DNA of 64,000 nucleotides from a virus (UHGV-0091736), one strand, 5' to 3'. Positions 30,488-44,708 are shown, numbered from the stretch's first letter. Translations and numbers: made by a program. The notes: generated by a model from the sequence alone, not told the origin.

Positions 30488-30749
30488 TAGCTACTCGCAA
30501 GTCTTCATTAGCACGAGCAAGGCGCAACACTTCATGATTGAGATTCTGAAGACGCTTGTTTCTGTCCTCTACTTGCATAATAAGATCGTTGAGTGTTACT
30601 TTAACTTTCTCATTATACATCTCATCCACTCGGACTAGGGATTTATACATTCTCTCCCAGCTTGCTGCTTTGTTTCTGAGAACAATAAATCCTATAACGC
30701 TGATAGTTAAACAGCTTACAAAAAGGAATTTATATACTTCTAAAGTCAT
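30453..30749 (-). CDS. membrane-anchored coiled-coil protein (98 aa)
   Basis: N-terminal hydrophobic helix FLFVSCLTISVIGFIVL followed by a heptad-rich region. Confidence 0.5.
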   Translation of the reverse strand: MTLEVYKFLFVSCLTISVIGFIVLRNKAASWERMYKSLVRVDEMYNEKVKVTLNDLIMQVEDRNKRLQNLNHEVLRLARANEDLRVAIAKQQEINSDN

Positions 30750-30949
30750 ATCATTTTACCCTTTATCAGAGATTAAAAGTAATATTATTTAAGTAAGTTA
30801 TATTTAGTAAACTTATTTTCTAAGAAATTTTCAAAGGGTCTATATACAGAGCATTACCCATAGTCCCAGAATACTACCATCTTTTTCAATAAATTTACTA
30901 AGTGGTTGGTTTATAAAGGAATTTAGTTTGTCAAATCTGGCACTAGTGA

Positions 30950-36333: not shown

Positions 36334-37206
36334 TTACTTATTAGCCTTAATGCAGTTGGCTAGATTAACGTGAACAGTATAAACAGCATTATCAGCGTTA
36401 TTATAAACGGTAGTGGCGATCATCGACTCCTTAACCGGACCATAACTCACTAGATTGGTTACAGCTTTAACGTCTTCATAACGTTGTACAGTACCAAATG
36501 TCACCATATCCGCATCATTATCAGTGCGCTTAAGCACCAAATCATTGTTAGGCTGATTATCTAGTGTTTTAGACTGAAAGAGAACGCCTTCATTTGTTAC
36601 GTTGCTAAACTTCATTTTTAAGACAATAGTATTGCCGTCACTATCCGCACCGTTGCAAATCATCCAACCTTTATTGATGGAACTAGAGAAGACACTAGCC
36701 GCATCAGTTGCAGGAGCAGGACTAGCAACAGCCTTATCAGAAAGAGATGTGACCAGTGCACTAACACCGATCGCTGCAACCAGTGCATAACTTGCCAGAT
36801 TAACAGACTTCATAATCTTACTTGCAACAGTAGGCTTGATTGGCTGTTTCTTGTTTTTCTTGTTCCATGCTTCAACCATGACAGACAAGCGGGATAATTC
36901 AGCTTTCACATCACGGCATGACTCAGGCCAATCTTTCTGATTCCAGCTATCTAAATTTGCTTGAATGTAGCAATTAATAGCGTCCTGCATATCGGTAAAA
37001 CCGTTCTCTTTGAACGTGCTTTCATCTTCACACTGTAAAGCGTTCGCAGTAGAGTTAATGATCAAGCAAGCCAGCATTACAGAGTTTTTGAATCCTTTAC
37101 GTGCACTTTCGTTTTCCATCCACGCATCAGGACTACCAACGGTTAAGCCTAAAGATGAAAGGTTTTCGTTTGCTTTGTTCAAGTGGTTAATTGCTACTTT
37201 AGACAT
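36334..37206 (-). CDS. hypothetical protein with central transmembrane helix (290 aa)
   Basis: ORF track. SYALVAAIGVSALVTSL hydrophobic stretch. First gene of the minus arm. Confidence 0.6.
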   Translation of the reverse strand: MSKVAINHLNKANENLSSLGLTVGSPDAWMENESARKGFKNSVMLACLIINSTANALQCEDESTFKENGFTDMQDAINCYIQANLDSWNQKDWPESCRDVKAELSRLSVMVEAWNKKNKKQPIKPTVASKIMKSVNLASYALVAAIGVSALVTSLSDKAVASPAPATDAASVFSSSINKGWMICNGADSDGNTIVLKMKFSNVTNEGVLFQSKTLDNQPNNDLVLKRTDNDADMVTFGTVQRYEDVKAVTNLVSYGPVKESMIATTVYNNADNAVYTVHVNLANCIKANK

Positions 37207-37250
37207 TTGATATTCCTTATGGTTGATGAAAACTACAAACTACAATCGCA

Positions 37251-37278
37251 ACTATATAATAAAGGAAAAGGCTGTCAA
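37251..37278 (-). promoter_or_regulatory. sigma70 promoter (TTGACA-N16-TATAGT) for the leftward early operon
   Basis: -35 at 37273-37278 and -10 at 37251-37256 on the minus strand, about 40 nt upstream of the 37206 ATG. Confidence 0.65.
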
Positions 37279-37424
37279 CCATTTATTTTCTAACTTTCCT
37301 ATAACTTACTGAAAACTAAAGGAATTTAATTTACTAAACTTTCCATACTCAGAGAATCAGCTTACTGGATATTGTTACTTTATAACACTAATCCTACGGG
37401 TAACAGACCAACAGACCAGGGCAA

Positions 37425-37849
37425 ACGGGGAACACACAACCGCAGGATAGACCACGGGGAAACATAGCCAGATAGTGCGGTAGTAATATACCACTTAAAT
37501 AATTAGTTAACTATTAATAGCATTACTCAAACATCAAAGACCATTCGCTACGCTCATGCACGCTGAAAAAGAAAAGAATAAAAAGAATATAATAACCATC
37601 AAACATAATCTTTCCACTTAATTAATACATATATCATTATTGCACTCATAATAACAACTATTGAAACTATTTACACTCAAACTATGGGGGATGGGATGGT
37701 TACTATACGGTATTATTAGACCTGTTATTATCACGCCTTAACAGAGTCTAGCCTTTCATCCACTCAGTAAAGGGGAACTAAATAAACGGGTAGGTAATGT
37801 AATAGATGACATATACGGGGAAAGAATAACGGGGAGTAGGCACGGGGAA
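37425..37849 (+). repeat. ACGGGGAA iteron-like repeats (at least 5 copies) flanking an AT-rich core (about 37490-37680)
   Basis: Copies at 37425, 37454, 37815, 37829 (ACGGGGAG) and 37842, plus AAGGGGAA at 37770. Confidence 0.6.
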
Positions 37850-38000
37850 GGTTAGAACGTGGGAGGAGGTGTAAAGGCATTGCCAATAACCCTTTTTTAA
37901 ATGAGGACTCCCCCTTTTTAGGAATTCGTCGCAGAGCGCCTAGCCCCACTCGGTCAAATCAGAATTTTAAACTCTTATATATAAGGTTGAAAGAGAACTT

Positions 38001-38165
38001 ATGTGGAAAATTAAGTTAATCATTAAGCAATTCAAATGTGATCATGAGTACTATCGGATACGCAAAGCTTACGGGGATGAAAGAGTTCACTCCCTTTATA
38101 AGTCCACTTGGAGATGTAGTGAATGTGGTAAGCTTAAGCACAGCACATGGATGGATAGGCCTTAA
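38001..38165 (+). CDS. small zinc-ribbon protein (54 aa)
   Basis: Hand-translated MWKIKLIIKQFKCDHEYY..WRCSECGKLKH... Not in the ORF track because it is under 60 aa. Confidence 0.35.
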   Translation: MWKIKLIIKQFKCDHEYYRIRKAYGDERVHSLYKSTWRCSECGKLKHSTWMDRP

Positions 38166-38395
38166 CGTGACATGGCCTTTATGGGGGTGCCTTAATGTGA
38201 AGTCCCTTTTATGTTTTAACTTTTATCAGAGGGATGTATGACTGAAGATGAATATGGTAGCTTCTCTGAAGAAGACTACGAAAATGAATACAGGTATACT
38301 CACGGGTGTTAATGTGAGGTGGCCTTTACGGGTTAGATAGCCATCAAAGATGACGATATGACTAGCCCTTTATACTTTACTCAGAGGACAAAAGT

Positions 38396-38506
38396 ATGGG
38401 ATGGTTCCTGTTGGTTTTAATTCTTTTTACCACTGTTCCTATTGTTGCTGTGTTTGGTTGCATAGCCGCTGACTTATTAGGAATAAAGAAAGGAGATGAT
38501 TTATGA
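38396..38506 (+). CDS. small hydrophobic peptide (36 aa)
   Basis: MGWFLLVLILFTTVPIVAVFGCIAADLLG... ATGA overlap with the next gene. Confidence 0.3.
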   Translation: MGWFLLVLILFTTVPIVAVFGCIAADLLGIKKGDDL

Positions 38507-38859
38507 GGTTGGATTTAAGAGGTTGTACTAGGTCAGTTATATTGTTCAGAGGTTATGCTATCAAGATTCCTACTTTTAAATCTTGGAAGCTTTTCTTAAA
38601 AGGGATTCTTGCTAATCTACAAGAGAGACATTTCTCTGAGATGAAAGACCCCAACCTTTGTCCTGTAGTCTTCTCTGATAAGTTAGGTTTCTTAGTAATA
38701 ATGAAGAGGTGTAAAGAGGTTGAGCACATAGGATTGTGGATGGCAGAGATTCACACCTTGAAAGGTTCCCTTCCTAAAGAATTTTACCTGTCAGATCTTA
38801 AGCCAGAAAATTATGGATACCTAGGCGGGCGGTTGGTTAAATTAGATTATGGAGATTGA
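38503..38859 (+). CDS. minimal protein-kinase-like protein (118 aa)
   Basis: YAIKIP (VAIK-like), LQER (helix C Glu), LVIMKR (hinge-like), SDLKPENYG (catalytic loop), KLDYG (DFG-like). Ends one residue after DYG. Confidence 0.5.
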   Translation: MRLDLRGCTRSVILFRGYAIKIPTFKSWKLFLKGILANLQERHFSEMKDPNLCPVVFSDKLGFLVIMKRCKEVEHIGLWMAEIHTLKGSLPKEFYLSDLKPENYGYLGGRLVKLDYGD

Positions 38860-39083
38860 TCATGAATTTAATACTAGACTTTTTATCAGAGTTGGTGCCT
38901 CGGTTCAGAACAGAAACTTGTGCCTTTGTTAAGATATCCCCTGAAGAATTAGAATGCATCGGTCGTCTGGTTGACTTGGATGATGATGAAGAATTTGATG
39001 CAACGATGGAAGTTAGTAGCCTAGGATGGTTATTCTTCCGAGCGTTCACCACTATCAAACCACACACTTATAAGGAATATTAA
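38856..39083 (+). CDS. hypothetical acidic protein (75 aa)
   Basis: ORF track; ATGA overlap. Confidence 0.5.
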   Translation: MIMNLILDFLSELVPRFRTETCAFVKISPEELECIGRLVDLDDDEEFDATMEVSSLGWLFFRAFTTIKPHTYKEY

Positions 39084-39086
39084 TTT

Positions 39087-39488
39087 ATGTTAGACTTAAT
39101 CCACACTACTCGCCCTAATTCTAAAACTAAAACACAACCATCTACTCTGGAAGTAGTTGAATATGAATCTACTAAACATGACCACCTCCCTGACTATGCT
39201 CGTGCAATGATTGAGATGATTGAAGAAGCTGAATATGAAATGCTCCATGATTACATTACCTCCAAAGATGAATGGCATCGTGATGTTCGAATAGAAGAGG
39301 ATGGTACAGAAACAATTACGTGGATTCACAAGAGTGAGCTAGTAGACGACGCACTGCGAGACTACGAAAAATTTTTGGTCGACGGCTCTATTCTTTTAGA
39401 GGAAGGGAAGGGTGCAGAACTTCCGTGGGAAGGCGAGACGATTGCTCTTGGTAAGATGTTTAACCTGTCCGTTGGTGATTGTAAGTAA
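39087..39488 (+). CDS. hypothetical protein (133 aa)
   Basis: ORF track. Confidence 0.55.
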   Translation: MLDLIHTTRPNSKTKTQPSTLEVVEYESTKHDHLPDYARAMIEMIEEAEYEMLHDYITSKDEWHRDVRIEEDGTETITWIHKSELVDDALRDYEKFLVDGSILLEEGKGAELPWEGETIALGKMFNLSVGDCK

Positions 39489-39493
39489 TATTT

Positions 39494-39516
39494 GCCTCCG
39501 TTGGGAGGCTTTTTGT
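39494..39516 (+). terminator. Rho-independent terminator (plus)
   Basis: GCCUCC-GUUG-GGAGGC then UUUUUGUG. Confidence 0.65.
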
Positions 39517-39524
39517 GTTGTTGA

Positions 39525-39533
39525 TAATGTAGA
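39525..39533 (+). promoter_or_regulatory. TAATGTAGA promoter-like element
   Basis: 8/9 match to TAATGTATA, 12 nt before the 39545 ATG region. Confidence 0.4.
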
Positions 39534-39544
39534 AGGAGTATAAA

Positions 39545-40018
39545 ATGTTTGGAGAAAACGGAGAACTCACGCCTGCACAGGTAGCTGAGATTACAGGAAG
39601 ATTACCCGGAGTAACGGAAGAACTTGAAGGCCGTGGTATGAACCCAAGCAATGGGAAGTTTCAAAAGGGGAATAAATTCGGACGACCCAAAGGTAGTAGA
39701 GGTAAACTGACACAATTAATGTTGGACCGTGTTGCTGCAAGTCATTTGTCTCCTGATGAAGTGTTAATTCAAATTTACGAAGATCCTAATATTCCACCTG
39801 ATCTTAGATTCAAGGCTGCATCAAAAGTTGCAGATCTGGTATATCCTAAGGCGGCCTCCGTTGAAGTTAAGATTGAGGAAGAGAATGTAATCAACGAAGA
39901 ATCATTGAATGCACAAATCAAGGACTTCTTGACTGGAGCACTTGGTATCGACGTTATGCCTCCAGAAGAAGACAACTCTGAGGACGCTGAAAAGGGGGAG
40001 GAAGCGGACGAGAGTTAA
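39545..40018 (+). CDS. putative small terminase subunit
   Basis: Located immediately upstream of terL. GNKFGRPKGSRGK basic motif, acidic tail. Confidence 0.45.
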   Translation: MFGENGELTPAQVAEITGRLPGVTEELEGRGMNPSNGKFQKGNKFGRPKGSRGKLTQLMLDRVAASHLSPDEVLIQIYEDPNIPPDLRFKAASKVADLVYPKAASVEVKIEEENVINEESLNAQIKDFLTGALGIDVMPPEEDNSEDAEKGEEADES

Positions 40019-40087
40019 GTAAAGGAAAGAAGGGGAGGTTCTTTGACGAAGGGACTTTCCCTTTTCTATTTTTAAACTGGAGGAAGT

Positions 40088-40690
40088 ATGTCACTAGATA
40101 AACAAATTTATGAAGCTCTAACTGGTAACAATCTTAGTGTAGATGAAAAGAAAGCACTATTGAATATGTTGAAAGAGCGTGACCAATGGAGGAAGTATAA
40201 TAGGATTTTGTCTTTCAAGGCGTATGACTTCCAAAAGAAATTTTATGCAGCAGGATTGAAGCATAGGTTCAGGTTTCTCTGTGCGGCTAACCGAGTTGGG
40301 AAAAGTTACAGTGAAGCGTACGAATTCGCATGCCACGTTACCGGAAGATATCCAACATGGTGGACCGGTCATAAGTTTAAGAGGCCAATACTTGCGTGGG
40401 CTGTAGGGATTACAGGGGACTCAACAAGGAAAGTATTGCAAAAAGAATTATTTGGTACACCAATTGGAAAGGACACTAATCTGCTAGGTACTGGAGTTAT
40501 TCCACGAGATGCAATAGTAATAGATACTATAGAAAGGGATGGTAATAAGCTACAGATAGTACAGATTAAGCACCAGAATGAAAGGGGTGAGTTTGATGGA
40601 TTAAGTACGTTAGAATTTCGATCAACACAACAGGGTGAACATACACTGATGGGTGCTACTGTTGATTATATATGGCTGGATGAAGAGGAT
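40088..40690 (+). CDS. terL: terminase large subunit, exon 1 (ATPase through Walker B)
   Basis: CAANRVGKS (Walker A-like) and VDYIWLDEED (Walker B). The ORF then stops after 2 more codons. Confidence 0.8.
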
Positions 40691-40784
40691 TGTATATAAC
40701 ATAGCTAGAAGTGTTGGTCCTCTATAAACTCGGTGAATTGCTGGAACCTCTGACCCTTAAGTGGAAGACAATCAGCAGCGAAGA

Positions 40785-40793
40785 TAATGTATA
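40785..40793 (+). promoter_or_regulatory. TAATGTATA promoter-like element inside the terL intron, upstream of the HNH ORF
   Basis: Exact consensus, 85 nt before the 40878 start. Confidence 0.45.
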
Positions 40794-40877
40794 ACTTACT
40801 CATGATACATTATAACGTTCAACGACTATCGAAAGCATAGCCCGTATGGGTGAAGAAGCAAGTAGAGTAGATACCAA

Positions 40878-41456
40878 GTGGTATCGAAGTGCCGAGCAAA
40901 ACTAAGGAGTGATACATTGGGTAGACCTAACAAATCATTAGATTCAACCAAAACATGTTCAGTGTGCTCTGTAACAAAAGACATAGAATCTTTTGCAATA
41001 AGAACAAGAGCAATATCCACTGGAGAGGTTAGAATCTACCGTAAGTCTCAATGCAAAGAGTGCATGGCTGAGATGAGAAGGGATTGGGGTAAGAATAATC
41101 CAGATAAGATTCGTGAGAATAATAATTCTCCAAATAAGAGAGCTTGCGATAATGCAAGACGGGCTGGATTAGAAACTGCTTCTATTATCAGAGATGATGA
41201 GTATAATAAATTTGTTATGGAAGAAATGTATGAACTTCGAAATCTTAGAACAAAGGAAACTGGATTTCAATGGCATGTAGATCACATAATCCCTTTAAAA
41301 GGTAATAACGTATGTGGTTTTCATGTCTGGTATAACTTGCAGGTAGTTCCTGCTGTTTTCAACCTATCTAAGAGTAATAGTTTTGATGATATAGTCTGCT
41401 CTGCATGGAAACATGCAGCTGGAGAAATCCGGGATGAGATTAACGATCTTGTCTGA
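40878..41456 (+). CDS. HNH homing endonuclease (intron-encoded)
   Basis: [37 protein letters not shown]-terminal Cys pairs CSVC..CKEC. Confidence 0.85.
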
Positions 41457-41464
41457 ACAACACG

Positions 41465-42403
41465 CCATATGAGTCTATGGCTATATTCGCACAGTGCGTC
41501 ACACGTACACTCACAACTAAAGGTCTAGTTACAATTACAGCTACACCAGAGAACGGTTTAACTGAACTGGTAGATAAATTTATGAAAGGTGAAGGGGATG
41601 AGAACACAGGTTCTCTATATTTCCAGAATGCTTCTTGGTGGGATGCTCATGCAGACCTAGGTGGACATATCACTGACCAAGATATAAAAGATATGACTGA
41701 AGGTATTCCAGCGTGGCAGTTAGAGATGCGTTCGAAAGGTATGCCATTGTTAGGAAGTGGTTTGATATATGATGTATCGGATGACACAATTAAATGTGAA
41801 CCATTCGAAATTCCTGATACGTGGAAACGTGTCTGTGCAATTGATATTGGTATTGATCACCCAACTGCTGCTGTTTGGACAGCTTACGATGCAAACACGG
41901 ATACTGTCTATGTTTACGACTCATATAAAGAAGGTGGCTTTACTCCAGTGTATCATGCTCCAGCTATTAATGGTCGTGGTCAGTGGATTCCTGTCATCCT
42001 ACCGCATGATGCGGACAATATTGAGAAAGGTAGTGGATCATCTGTTGCTCAATTCTATAAGAATGCAGGAGTTAATGTACAGAGTGAGACCTTCTACAAC
42101 AAAATTGGAATGGATGGTAAAAAGAACTTCTTTGTAGAACCCGGAATCACAGATATCCGAGAAAGAATGATGAGTGGACGCTTTAAAATCTTTAACACAG
42201 CTGCTAACGCTAAGCTATTCGAAGAGAAAGCTAGATATCACCGCAAGGTTGGTAAGATTATTAAAGAACATGATGACTTAATGGATGCAATGCGCTATTC
42301 AGCGTGCTCTGTTACACATCGTGGTCGCTCTAAGCATGACGTTAGCTACGGAAGTGCTTCTCTGTATGAGGCAAACGTAAGCAGATGGAATCAGAGTTAC
42401 TAA
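41465..42403 (+). CDS. terL: terminase large subunit, exon 2 (ATPase C-motif and nuclease domain)
   Basis: ..TRTLTTKGLVTITATPENG.. (coupling motif) and CAIDIGIDHP.. (RNase H-like nuclease). Confidence 0.8.
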   Translation, partial: PYESMAIFAQCVTRTLTTKGLVTITATPENGLTELVDKFMKGEGDENTGSLYFQNASWWDAHADLGGHITDQDIKDMTEGIPAWQLEMRSKGMPLLGSGLIYDVSDDTIKCEPFEIPDTWKRVCAIDIGIDHPTAAVWTAYDANTDTVYVYDSYKEGGFTPVYHAPAINGRGQWIPVILPHDADNIEKGSGSSVAQFYKNAGVNVQSETFYNKIGMDGKKNFFVEPGITDIRERMMSGRFKIFNTAANAKLFEEKARYHRKVGKIIKEHDDLMDAMRYSACSVTHRGRSKHDVSYGSASLYEANVSRWNQSY

Positions 42404-42408
42404 AGTAA

Positions 42409-42438
42409 GGGGGAGGTTTGTCCTCCCTTCTTTTATTT
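42409..42438 (+). terminator. Rho-independent terminator (plus)
   Basis: GGGGGAGG-UUUGU-CCUCCCUU then CUUUUAUUU. Confidence 0.6.
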
Positions 42439-42464
42439 AAGCTATCAACCGAGGGAGAGAATCG

Positions 42465-44708
42465 ATGGCTAAGCAAAAATATAGTGAAGAGGTGTTGGAC
42501 GAGTTACGTGTTGACCTTCAACGTCGTTTTAATTACGCTCAAGGCTACGTGGACATGGCTGTTAAGGGCTATGCTCGTGAAGCTTGGGAATATTTCTATG
42601 GTAACTTACCTGCACCAGTAACTGCTGGCAGCTCTAGTTGGGTAGATCGTACTGTTTGGGAATCTGTTAACGGTACATTGCAAGATATTATTAACGTATT
42701 CTGTTCTGGTGATGAAGCAGTTACTTTCGTAGCTGACAACCAACAGGATTCTGATGCTGCTGATGTAGCAACTAAATTAGTCAACCAAATTCTTCTGCGT
42801 GACAATCCGGGATACAATATTATCTCTTCTGCTGCACAAGAATGTCTGGTTACTCGTAACTCTTTTATCAAATATTATTGGGATGAGCACACTTCTACTC
42901 AAACTGAAGAAGCTGAAGGTGTACCACCGGAAGCATTGGCTGCATATGTTCAGGGATTAGAAGCTGGTGGACTCAAGAATCTGGAAATCTTCACTGAAGA
43001 TAATGAAGACGGTACAGTAGATGTTAAAGTTACTTATGAACAAACTGTTAAACGTGTGAAAGTTGAATATGTTCCTTCAGAGCAAATCTTTGTTGATGAA
43101 CATGCTACCTCTTTTGCAGATGCACAATACTTCTGTCATCGTGTACGTCGTTCTAAAGAAGATCTGGTTGCTATGGGCTTCCCTAAAGATGAGATTGAAG
43201 CATTCAACGACTGGACAGACACGATGGACACCACTCAATCTACAGTTGCTTGGTCTCGTACTGACTGGCGTCAGGATATTGATGCTGATATTGGTACAGA
43301 TACCGAAGATATCGCTTCTATGGTTTGGGTTTATGAGCACTACATCCGTACTGGTGTTCTAGATAAGAATAAAGAGTCTAAACTCTATCAGGTTATTCAA
43401 GCTGGTGAGCATATCCTTCACACTGAAGAAGTAACTCACATTCCGTTTGTAACCTTCTGCCCGTATCCGATTCCGGGTTCCTTCTATGGTCAATCGGTCT
43501 ATGACATTACGAAAGATATTCAAGATTTACGTACCGCGTTAGTTCGTGGTTATATTGATAACGTCAACAATGCTAACTATGGTCGATACAAAGCTCTTGT
43601 TGGTGCATACGATCGTCGCTCTCTGCTTGATAACCGTCCCGGTGGAGTGGTTGAAATGGAACGTCAGGACGCTATTGACCTGTTCCCATACCATAACCTA
43701 CCTCAAGGTATTGACGGCCTCCTAGGCATGTCTGAGGAGCTTAAAGAGACACGTACAGGTGTAACCAAACTAGGCATGGGTATCAACCCTGATGTGTTTA
43801 AGAATGATAACGCTTATGCAACCGTAGGCTTGATGATGAATGCTGCACAGAACCGTCTCCGTATGGTATGTCGTAACATTGCTCACAATGGTATGGTTGA
43901 ATTGATGCGTGGTATTTACAGTCTTATCAGAGAAAACGGTGAAGTTCCTATTGAGGTACAAACACCTCGTGGTATGGTTCAGGTTAACCCTAAACAATTA
44001 CCAGCTCGTCATAATCTTCAAGTTGTTGTAGCTATCTCTCCTAATGAGAAAGCAGAACGTGCACAGAAACTGATTAGCTTGAAACAGCTGATTGCAGCAG
44101 ATGCACAGTTAGCACCTCTCTTTGGTTTGGAGCAAGATCGTTACATGACTGCACAGATCTTTGAGTTGATGGGTATTAAGGACACTCACAAATACCTTCT
44201 GCCTCTGGAACAGTATCAGCCTCCAGAACCTTCTCCGATGGAAATCCTCCAGCTCGAGATGACTAAAGCACAGGTTGAGAACGTACAGGCTTCTTCTCAG
44301 AAGATGATTGCTGATGCATTCGACCAACGTGAACGTACTACATTTGAACAGCAGAAAGCTGCGGATGAATTGAGTCTGCGTCAGGAAGAGTTGCAGTTCA
44401 AGCAAGAAAATGCAGCAGATGTTATGACTCTGGAAAACCGTAAAGAAGATAACAGCGCTACTCTGGAACAAGCTAAGCACAAGTTAGCTCTTATGCAACA
44501 GCAGGTCCGTCAATATGAATCTGTACTGAAAGAGTTGCAGATGGTTATGGAACATCAGGTTGACCAAGAGAAGCTTAATGAACAATCACGCATTCAAAAC
44601 AAGACTTTGGAACTCCAAAAGAAAGAAGCTAATGTAACTAAGAAAGAGCAACAAGCTTCTCTCAAAGATTCACGGATTCCAGGCAAACGTCTTGGAAGTA
44701 AAAAGTAA
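42465..44708 (+). CDS. portal protein (747 aa) with long C-terminal coiled coil
   Basis: Size and position after terL. Coiled-coil tail rich in Q/E/K. Confidence 0.7.
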   Translation: MAKQKYSEEVLDELRVDLQRRFNYAQGYVDMAVKGYAREAWEYFYGNLPAPVTAGSSSWVDRTVWESVNGTLQDIINVFCSGDEAVTFVADNQQDSDAADVATKLVNQILLRDNPGYNIISSAAQECLVTRNSFIKYYWDEHTSTQTEEAEGVPPEALAAYVQGLEAGGLKNLEIFTEDNEDGTVDVKVTYEQTVKRVKVEYVPSEQIFVDEHATSFADAQYFCHRVRRSKEDLVAMGFPKDEIEAFNDWTDTMDTTQSTVAWSRTDWRQDIDADIGTDTEDIASMVWVYEHYIRTGVLDKNKESKLYQVIQAGEHILHTEEVTHIPFVTFCPYPIPGSFYGQSVYDITKDIQDLRTALVRGYIDNVNNANYGRYKALVGAYDRRSLLDNRPGGVVEMERQDAIDLFPYHNLPQGIDGLLGMSEELKETRTGVTKLGMGINPDVFKNDNAYATVGLMMNAAQNRLRMVCRNIAHNGMVELMRGIYSLIRENGEVPIEVQTPRGMVQVNPKQLPARHNLQVVVAISPNEKAERAQKLISLKQLIAADAQLAPLFGLEQDRYMTAQIFELMGIKDTHKYLLPLEQYQPPEPSPMEILQLEMTKAQVENVQASSQKMIADAFDQRERTTFEQQKAADELSLRQEELQFKQENAADVMTLENRKEDNSATLEQAKHKLALMQQQVRQYESVLKELQMVMEHQVDQEKLNEQSRIQNKTLELQKKEANVTKKEQQASLKDSRIPGKRLGSKK

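Follow-up and report, generated by a model that had tools for sequence, protein, structure and literature searches.

Phased, one-stranded G-rich repeats in and beside the predicted direct terminal repeat of a Kuravirus genome

The region described here extends from 37207 to 38000 in a 64,000-nucleotide stretch of DNA of the virus UHGV-0091736 (this whole 64-kb stretch is referred to as the window). From left to right, the locus contains a leftward early promoter, a non-coding leader of about 470 bp belonging to the predicted right end of the genome, a 192-bp direct terminal repeat (DTR), a left-end leader and the first rightward gene (Table 1). The right-end leader holds the left of two clusters of G-rich repeats, an AT-rich core and invariant blocks. 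The DTR is preceded by the phi32_128 homologue and the early promoter and followed by gene 1 and the terminase genes. The leftward promoter was found exactly where the initial annotation had placed it. Its homologue in SU10 is the early promoter ttgacagccttttcctttaatatatag, predicted upstream of the rightmost gene CDS125 (S2 table, PMC4281155). SU10 has three further early sigma-70 promoters between CDS120 and CDS121, 2.7-3.2 kb inside the rightmost promoter (PMC4281155).

The initial annotation had also described the region as free of genes, and this holds: between 37207 and 38000 we found short unconserved ORFs but no conserved one, and most annotated relatives list no gene in the equivalent region. 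The longest of these ORFs (61 aa, 37764-37949, minus strand) was rejected as a gene because its frame is lost or gains stops in relatives. In the EK5 record (PQ805429.1), three to five "hypothetical protein" genes are annotated across the junction. Given the loss of the 61-aa frame in relatives, these junction genes are likely over-annotations spanning the physical ends; "intergenic" ORFs in some database records are spurious. The sole terminator-like match (37457-37440, minus strand) was likewise rejected, since it depends on two G-T pairs and its T tail is poor.

Table 1. Features of the genome-end region and of the neighbouring terminase genes (^ marks the predicted end of the repeat)
Feature	Position	Strand	Remarks
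phi32_128 homologue, rightmost early gene	36334-37206	-	
Sigma-70 early promoter, TTGACA-16-TATAGT	37251-37278	-	11/12 match; drives rightmost gene 36334-37206
Left repeat cluster	37396-37461	+	ACGGGTAA at 37396, ACGGGGAA at 37425 and 37454; spacing 29, 29 bp start to start
Conserved block TGCGGTAgTAATATACCACTTAAATAATT, left edge of AT-rich core	37464-37495		From alignment; 37480-37499 91% identical in 14 phages
AT-rich core	37481-37680		A-tract repeats, conserved blocks, indel-rich spacers
Conserved block ACGCTGAAAAAGAAA	from 37560		Bin 37560-79, 0.93
Conserved block TTAATACATATATCATTATTGCACTCATAAT	37620-37650		Bin 37620-39, 0.92
Invariant word AACTATGGGG, 60 bp before DTR	37680-37689	+	Identical in 14/14 aligned phages
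Left boundary word CT^AGCC	37748-37753		Virion left end predicted at A37750; phiEco32 and YF01 left ends start AGCCTTTC
Direct terminal repeat, one collapsed copy	37750-37941 (192 bp)	+	AGCCTTTC...GAGCGCCT; from alignment to phiEco32 and YF01 ends
Right repeat cluster	37770-37849	+	AAGGGGAA at 37770, ACGGGTAG at 37786, ACGGGGAA at 37815 and 37842, ACGGGGAG at 37829
Internal repeat	37890-37920	+	CCCTTTTTTA (37890-37899), CCCCCTTTTTA (37910-37920); compare SU10 repeat
Right boundary word CT^AGCC	37940-37945		Virion right end predicted at T37941; phiEco32 and YF01 end ...GAGCGGCT
Left-end leader: putative sigma-70 promoter TTTTAAACTCTTATATATAAGG and ribosome site	37950-38000	+	Serves first rightward ORF 38001-38165
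Gene 1, first rightward ORF	38001-38165	+	ORF list
Putative small terminase, 157 aa	39545-40018		On the gene 1 side; name from YF01 authors' annotation
N-terminal large-terminase ORF	40088-40699		Terminase_6N
HNH/endonuclease VII-like ORF	40878-41456		Inside large terminase gene
C-terminal large-terminase ORF	41477-42403		Terminase_6C

A megablast search of 37000-38300 against 50,697 phage records matched 95 of them, nearly all Kuravirus phages of Escherichia or Shigella, and the best matches were about 89-90% identical to the window over this interval. In the linear records of phiEco32, SU10, YF01 and YW01, which contain both repeats, the match reaches to 17 bases or less from the record end and there is a second matching place at the opposite end. 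The YF01 record (OQ025076) annotates a "direct terminal repeat" at 1-193 and 78434-78626. We aligned 37650-38060 of the window with the last 300 and first 320 bases of phiEco32 and YF01. The 193-bp DTR of phiEco32 (EU330206) and YF01, at both ends, aligns end to end with 37750-37941. In the alignment, the sequence left of 37750 corresponds to the unique right-end sequence of the relatives, and that right of 37941 to their unique left-end sequence. The DTRs of 12 further relatives can also be aligned with 37750-37941. A 21-mer from the DTR occurs once in the window, so the repeat is present as a single copy.

The single DTR copy with its flanks on the proper sides indicates that the window is a circularly collapsed, permuted representation of the genome. 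This bears out the second of two readings in the initial annotation, that the physical ends map here and that the sequence had been circularised or permuted. Thus, the region is almost certainly a collapsed DTR of the Kuravirus (phiEco32-like) type, and very probably represents the concatemer junction of a Kuravirus podophage at which the assembler merged two identical repeats. The virion DNA, as read from the sequence, would be linear, with its left end at 37750, its right end at 37941 and the repeat at both ends.

DTRs are already known in Kuravirus phages (Gordonclarkvirinae). Genome-length nanopore reads of YF01 show 193-bp repeats, and similarity searches extended the finding to 30 phages of the group, with repeats of 192-193 bp and a conserved zone at about positions 130-170 (PMC9965538). 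Both SU10 ends are marked by a sharp read drop-off (PMC4281155), and the repeats of Paul were called by PhageTerm (PMC6787329). The ends of the window phage are placed by homology, the termini of four relatives having been mapped experimentally; the DTR is 193 bp long in phiEco32, SU10, Paul and YF01. The DTR of the window is homologous to theirs and occupies the same position between the phi32_128 homologue and gene 1. It has the same boundaries, from AGCCTTTC... to ...GAGCGSCT, and shares the internal CCCTTTTTTA repeat and the invariant TGAGGACTCCCCC core, but it is 192 rather than 193 bp long and about 10% diverged in sequence from the known Kuravirus DTRs. It is carried once, whereas the known DTRs are present twice, because the representation is circularly collapsed. 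A scan of IMG/VR with the invariant repeat core returned no match besides phiEco32 itself.

The two ends of the DTR share a word. The left boundary reads GTCT^AGCCTTTC and the right boundary GCGCCT^AGCCCCAC; CTAGCC occurs 11 times on the plus strand of the window, and two of these copies lie exactly on the predicted ends. In Paul, CHD5UKE1 and KM01, the record breaks at the left-boundary base, and the IMEP8 record ends at the base equivalent to the right boundary. In the alignment, CT^AG is found at the right boundary of every relative spanning that junction and at the left boundary of most relatives. The variants are TAT^AGCC at the left boundary of YF01 and rybdy8, GCT^GGCC at that of EP335 and 4E8, and CT^AGGC at the right boundary of phiEco32. 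Since CTAG is palindromic, one enzyme could nick opposite strands at both sites.

Within the DTR, TGAGGACTCCCCCTTTTT (37902-37919), at the internal repeat, is the most conserved block (98% identity). SU10 has the arrangement CCCTTTTTTA-10 nt-CCCTTTTTTA, 21 nt from the repeat end, and the T-run length of this internal repeat was heterogeneous among reads (PMC4281155). A DTR hairpin or cruciform was rejected because folding of both strands as single-stranded DNA was no stabler than that of shuffled sequences (z = +2.1 and +0.8). As for inverted pairs, Bas92/93 alter the G-rich arm of AATAACGGGGAGT/ACTCCCCCTTTTT and leave the C-rich arm invariant, and ACGGGGAGT/ACTCCCCCT shows no co-variation in these phages. 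A structured single strand, as proposed for the T7 processing intermediate, was thus not found for the Kuravirus DTR.

The G-rich repeats form two clusters. ACGGGGAR has five sites on both strands of the window together, compared with 1.65 expected from shuffles: ACGGGGAA starts at 37425, 37454, 37815 and 37842, and ACGGGGAG at 37829. These are the five positions given by the initial annotation, which were exact, and they are the sole copies in the 64 kb. All five are plus-strand copies that fall within 425 bp of sequence; by chance, clustering of this kind on one strand would have a probability of about 6e-10. The related words AAGGGGAA and ACGGGTAGG occur at 37770 and 37786, and ACGGGTAA extends the left cluster to 37396. 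With the relaxed motif ACGGGKA, 8 of the 11 sites in the window fall within 37396-38077, all 8 on the plus strand. The left cluster, which also holds a second small repeat (AGACCA/AACAGACC), lies 290-350 bp upstream of the DTR, within unique sequence of the right-end leader. The right cluster lies inside the DTR, with spacings from 37786 of 29, 14 and 13 bp. The clusters flank the AT-rich stretch, as had been described initially. Further to the right, between the very small ORFs of the genome's left end (38160-38375), an element of about 24 nt, TTAAYGTGA..GGCCTTTAYGGG, is present in three copies (38162, 38192 and 38309) together with a related TGACTAGCCCTTTAT at 38359; each of these elements ends in an A(C/T)GGG(G/T) word on the plus strand.

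The initial annotation would have given up its interpretation if the repeats were not conserved in relatives; in 15 loci from relatives, both the motif and its phasing are kept. A(C/T)GGG(G/T) words are abundant on the plus strand of these loci and almost absent on the minus strand. The left cluster of phiEco32 has the same three sites with 29/29-bp spacing, and MLP3, Bas88 and EP335 have three or four left-cluster sites at 27-30 bp spacing. In MLP3 and Bas88, the spacings are 28/30/30 in the left cluster and 29/28/15 within the repeat. In the 14-phage alignment, conservation of motif columns versus other columns was 0.83 versus 0.74 in the DTR and 0.79 versus 0.71 upstream of it. The most conserved elements of the region are not the G-rich repeats, but 37480-99, 37560-79, 37620-39 and 37902-19.

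The motif has also changed in a lineage-specific manner. In Bas92/93, CACGGGA replaces the ACGGGGA of the window at four separate sites. In MLP3 and Bas88, ATGGGTA(A/G) (the ATGGGTAG type) is found at two sites of the left cluster and at three in the repeat, and an insertion within the DTR adds motif copies. These changes are coordinated in two clusters that are 360 bp apart. Concerted change in both clusters implies either one factor that reads both or homogenisation among the copies; its source could be recombination between copies instead of a binding protein that co-evolves with them. Being phased, one-stranded, conserved and concertedly changing, the repeats look functional. It is very improbable that they have no function and arose neutrally, through slippage or recombination in the non-coding sequence of the ends: short repeats and indels are common in the non-coding region of the junction and a role for the comparable T7 heptamer has, to our knowledge, never been firmly established, but this explanation has against it the one-strand restriction in 15 loci, the conserved phasing, the greater conservation of motifs than of spacers and the coordinated lineage-specific changes.

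Between the two clusters lies the AT-rich core, whose GC content the initial annotation had estimated by eye at about 25%. The computed value is close to this estimate (26.7% at 37490-37680 and 25.8% at 37481-37670; whole window, 42.2%). The core includes A-tract repeats (AAAAAGAAAAGAAT, 2.1 copies at 37566-37595), and ACGCTGAAAAAGAAA is duplicated in Bas92. The blocks at 37464-37495, 37560-37579, 37620-37655 and 37680-37689 are 91-100% conserved in 14 phages of at least two genera, and the spacers between the right-end-leader blocks are indel-rich among relatives. Read on the minus strand, the TGCGGTAgTAATATACCACTTAAATAATT block gives TGGTATATT, in our reading a putative extended -10-like word.

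Another explanation considered was transcription control. The repeats could be operator-like sites at which a phage or host regulator acts on early promoters at the genome ends; as a variant, the left cluster could lie in a leader RNA read leftward from TGGTATATT (minus strand, about 37480-37488). The region is placed between a strong leftward sigma-70 promoter and the putative rightward promoter of gene 1, the block with the extended -10-like word is 91% conserved, and phiEco32-type phages are known to use gp36 and gp79 for reprogramming the host RNA polymerase (PMC12276001). However, a simple promoter scan gave 4 sigma-70-like sites compared with 5.2 expected from shuffles, and the gp36-type promoter TAATGTATATA is absent, with one two-mismatch chance match only. 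The repeats are 120-560 bp away from the mapped promoter and do not overlap it; the SU10 authors list a single promoter upstream of the rightmost gene (PMC4281155); and Rfam has no RNA family in 37000-38600. We therefore regard both forms of transcription control as unlikely.

The first reading of the initial annotation was a replication origin. On this view, an initiator would bind the clusters as iterons, and the AT-rich core would serve for unwinding. In a T7-style version, an origin primed by a transcript would adjoin the genome end. Such an arrangement is familiar from iteron-type origins such as lambda ori and plasmid oriV, in which direct repeats adjoin an AT-rich stretch as they do here. 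Direct and regularly phased repeats flank the core on both sides; the core (37490-37680) ranks second in AT content among the 190-bp stretches of the window and contains very conserved blocks; and the cumulative GC-skew has its minimum at 37682. In T7, the promoters phiOL and phiOR, which have been described as secondary origins, lie beside the terminal repeats, which means that an origin and an end can coexist.

On the other side, the right cluster belongs to the terminal repeat and is thus explained without an origin, and the order cluster-core-cluster exists only in concatemers or at the right end of the virion DNA. The motif core of about 8-10 bp is shorter than classical iterons, which are 17-22 bp, and in contrast to lambda ori and oriV one cluster is inside a terminal repeat. 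Relatives differ by many indels in the spacers of the AT-rich core. The skew minimum is not diagnostic, since it falls both where the coding strand switches and at the physical ends. No DnaA box (with at most one mismatch) and no IHF consensus was found in 37207-38000. The HHpred-based annotation of YF01, in which two thirds of the genes are hypothetical (PMC9965538), lists no origin-binding initiator, the cognate gene to be expected from lambda ori or oriV. The iteron origin proposed initially thus receives no specific support, and we consider an origin of either kind improbable. The 190-bp stretch with the highest AT content in the window is elsewhere, at 30711-30900 (24.7% GC), roughly 7 kb inward from the right end. 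A simple promoter scan found one weak promoter-like site there, and in a search for an origin this stretch would be an alternative candidate.

The predicted end region can also be compared with the terminal repeat of T7. In the T7 record the repeat is 160 bp long, and CCTAAAG occurs inside it at positions 17, 41 and 60, after the left copy at eight positions from 175 to 332, many of them 13 bp apart, and before the right copy at 39671 and 39700. The latter two are 29 bp apart, the same as the spacing of the Kuravirus left cluster. CCTAAAG does not occur on the other strand of the T7 ends checked (1-340 and 39600-39937). The function of this heptamer has, as far as we know, not been firmly established. 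The T7 boundaries read GACTA^TCTCACAGT and CCCT^ATCTGTTACAGT; they share the word CTATCT..ACAGT, shifted by one base with respect to the cut. The promoters phiOL and phiOR are annotated beside the repeats.

By analogy, the Kuravirus junction is built like the T7 junction. Both have a short exact terminal repeat in a non-coding junction, a 7-8-bp word, confined to one strand, that recurs within the repeat and in the unique sequence flanking it on either side, 13-bp and 29-bp spacings, and related words at both repeat boundaries. Kuravirus also has T7-like replication genes, as judged from the YF01 annotation. The two junctions have no sequence similarity. Unlike T7, Kuravirus has a 190-bp AT-rich core between the left cluster and the repeat, reads its early genes from the right end, and lacks a phage RNA polymerase. 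YF01 encodes a T7-like polymerase, a primase/helicase, exonucleases and an ECF-type sigma factor; a single-subunit phage RNA polymerase is absent from its annotation, which has the sigma factor instead. In T7, the RNA polymerase has been implicated in junction processing and in recruitment of the prohead and terminase (PMC4281155).

Short words near a cutting site are found in other packaging systems as well. The hexamer clusters of P1 pac and the R sites of lambda cosB are short words beside the terminase cutting site that are bound by the recognition subunit. As in the Kuravirus candidate sites, the short repeated words are grouped around the cutting site, but these systems produce headful or cohesive ends, in contrast to the short exact terminal repeats here.

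Our preferred, although tentative, prediction is that the G-rich repeats are protein-binding sites for recognition of the concatemer junction or for end processing. Replication would produce head-to-tail concatemers with one repeat per junction, as in T7. A junction-recognition complex of the packaging machinery would bind the phased, one-stranded A(C/T)GGG(G/T)A arrays, and the junction would be opened at the two CT^AGCC words about 192 bp apart. The repeat would then be duplicated by DNA synthesis, giving a copy at both ends of each packaged genome. We infer these packaging and end-processing steps by analogy with known phages; the identity and position of the repeat come from the sequence alignment itself. 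It is possible, but rather doubtful, that the arrays and the CT^AG(C/G)C words at both boundaries form a dedicated system of end recognition or end measuring. In this reading, a co-evolving protein would coat the junction and direct the nicking of one strand at the first CT^AG site and of the opposite strand at the second.

For binding of the arrays by the packaging machinery, the putative small terminase is the obvious candidate reader. Its function and its membership in a terminase-small-subunit family find no support in Pfam or PHROGs. The protein is 92% identical between phages with the ACGGGGAA-type and the ATGGGTAG-type motif. Two substitutions in its basic N-terminal part, N33E and N36T, are shared by Bas88 and MLP3, which are also each other's closest relatives in the set; they track the motif type but are confounded with phylogeny. 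The large terminase gene (40088-42403) is interrupted in the window, whereas in YF01 it is a single uninterrupted CDS of 513 codons. In Rfam, the group I intron family matched over its full length at 40672-41418 (45 bits, slightly below the gathering score of 50, E = 2.7e-9); this was the sole Rfam match in 37000-42500. The interruption is probably a group I intron with a homing endonuclease.

For annotation, the genome should be reopened at 37750 and written as a linear molecule that starts and finishes with the 192-bp repeat; its true length would exceed that of the collapsed contig by 192 bp. In the literature accessible to us, from which the primary phiEco32 papers (Savalia 2008, Pavlova 2012) were missing, we found no description of the G-rich repeats or of the boundary word. 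Beside the known DTR, the repeat arrays are a minor detail, and the region is largely ordinary. How phiEco32-type phages cut and duplicate their DTR without a T7-type RNA polymerase is a question raised by the SU10 authors (PMC4281155). The conserved blocks, phased arrays and shared boundary word are a modest lead in this direction and offer concrete targets for mutation. If the doubtful reading as a dedicated system of end recognition and measuring is true, it would provide a sequence-level model for how a T7-type short repeat may be cut and duplicated without T7 RNA polymerase.
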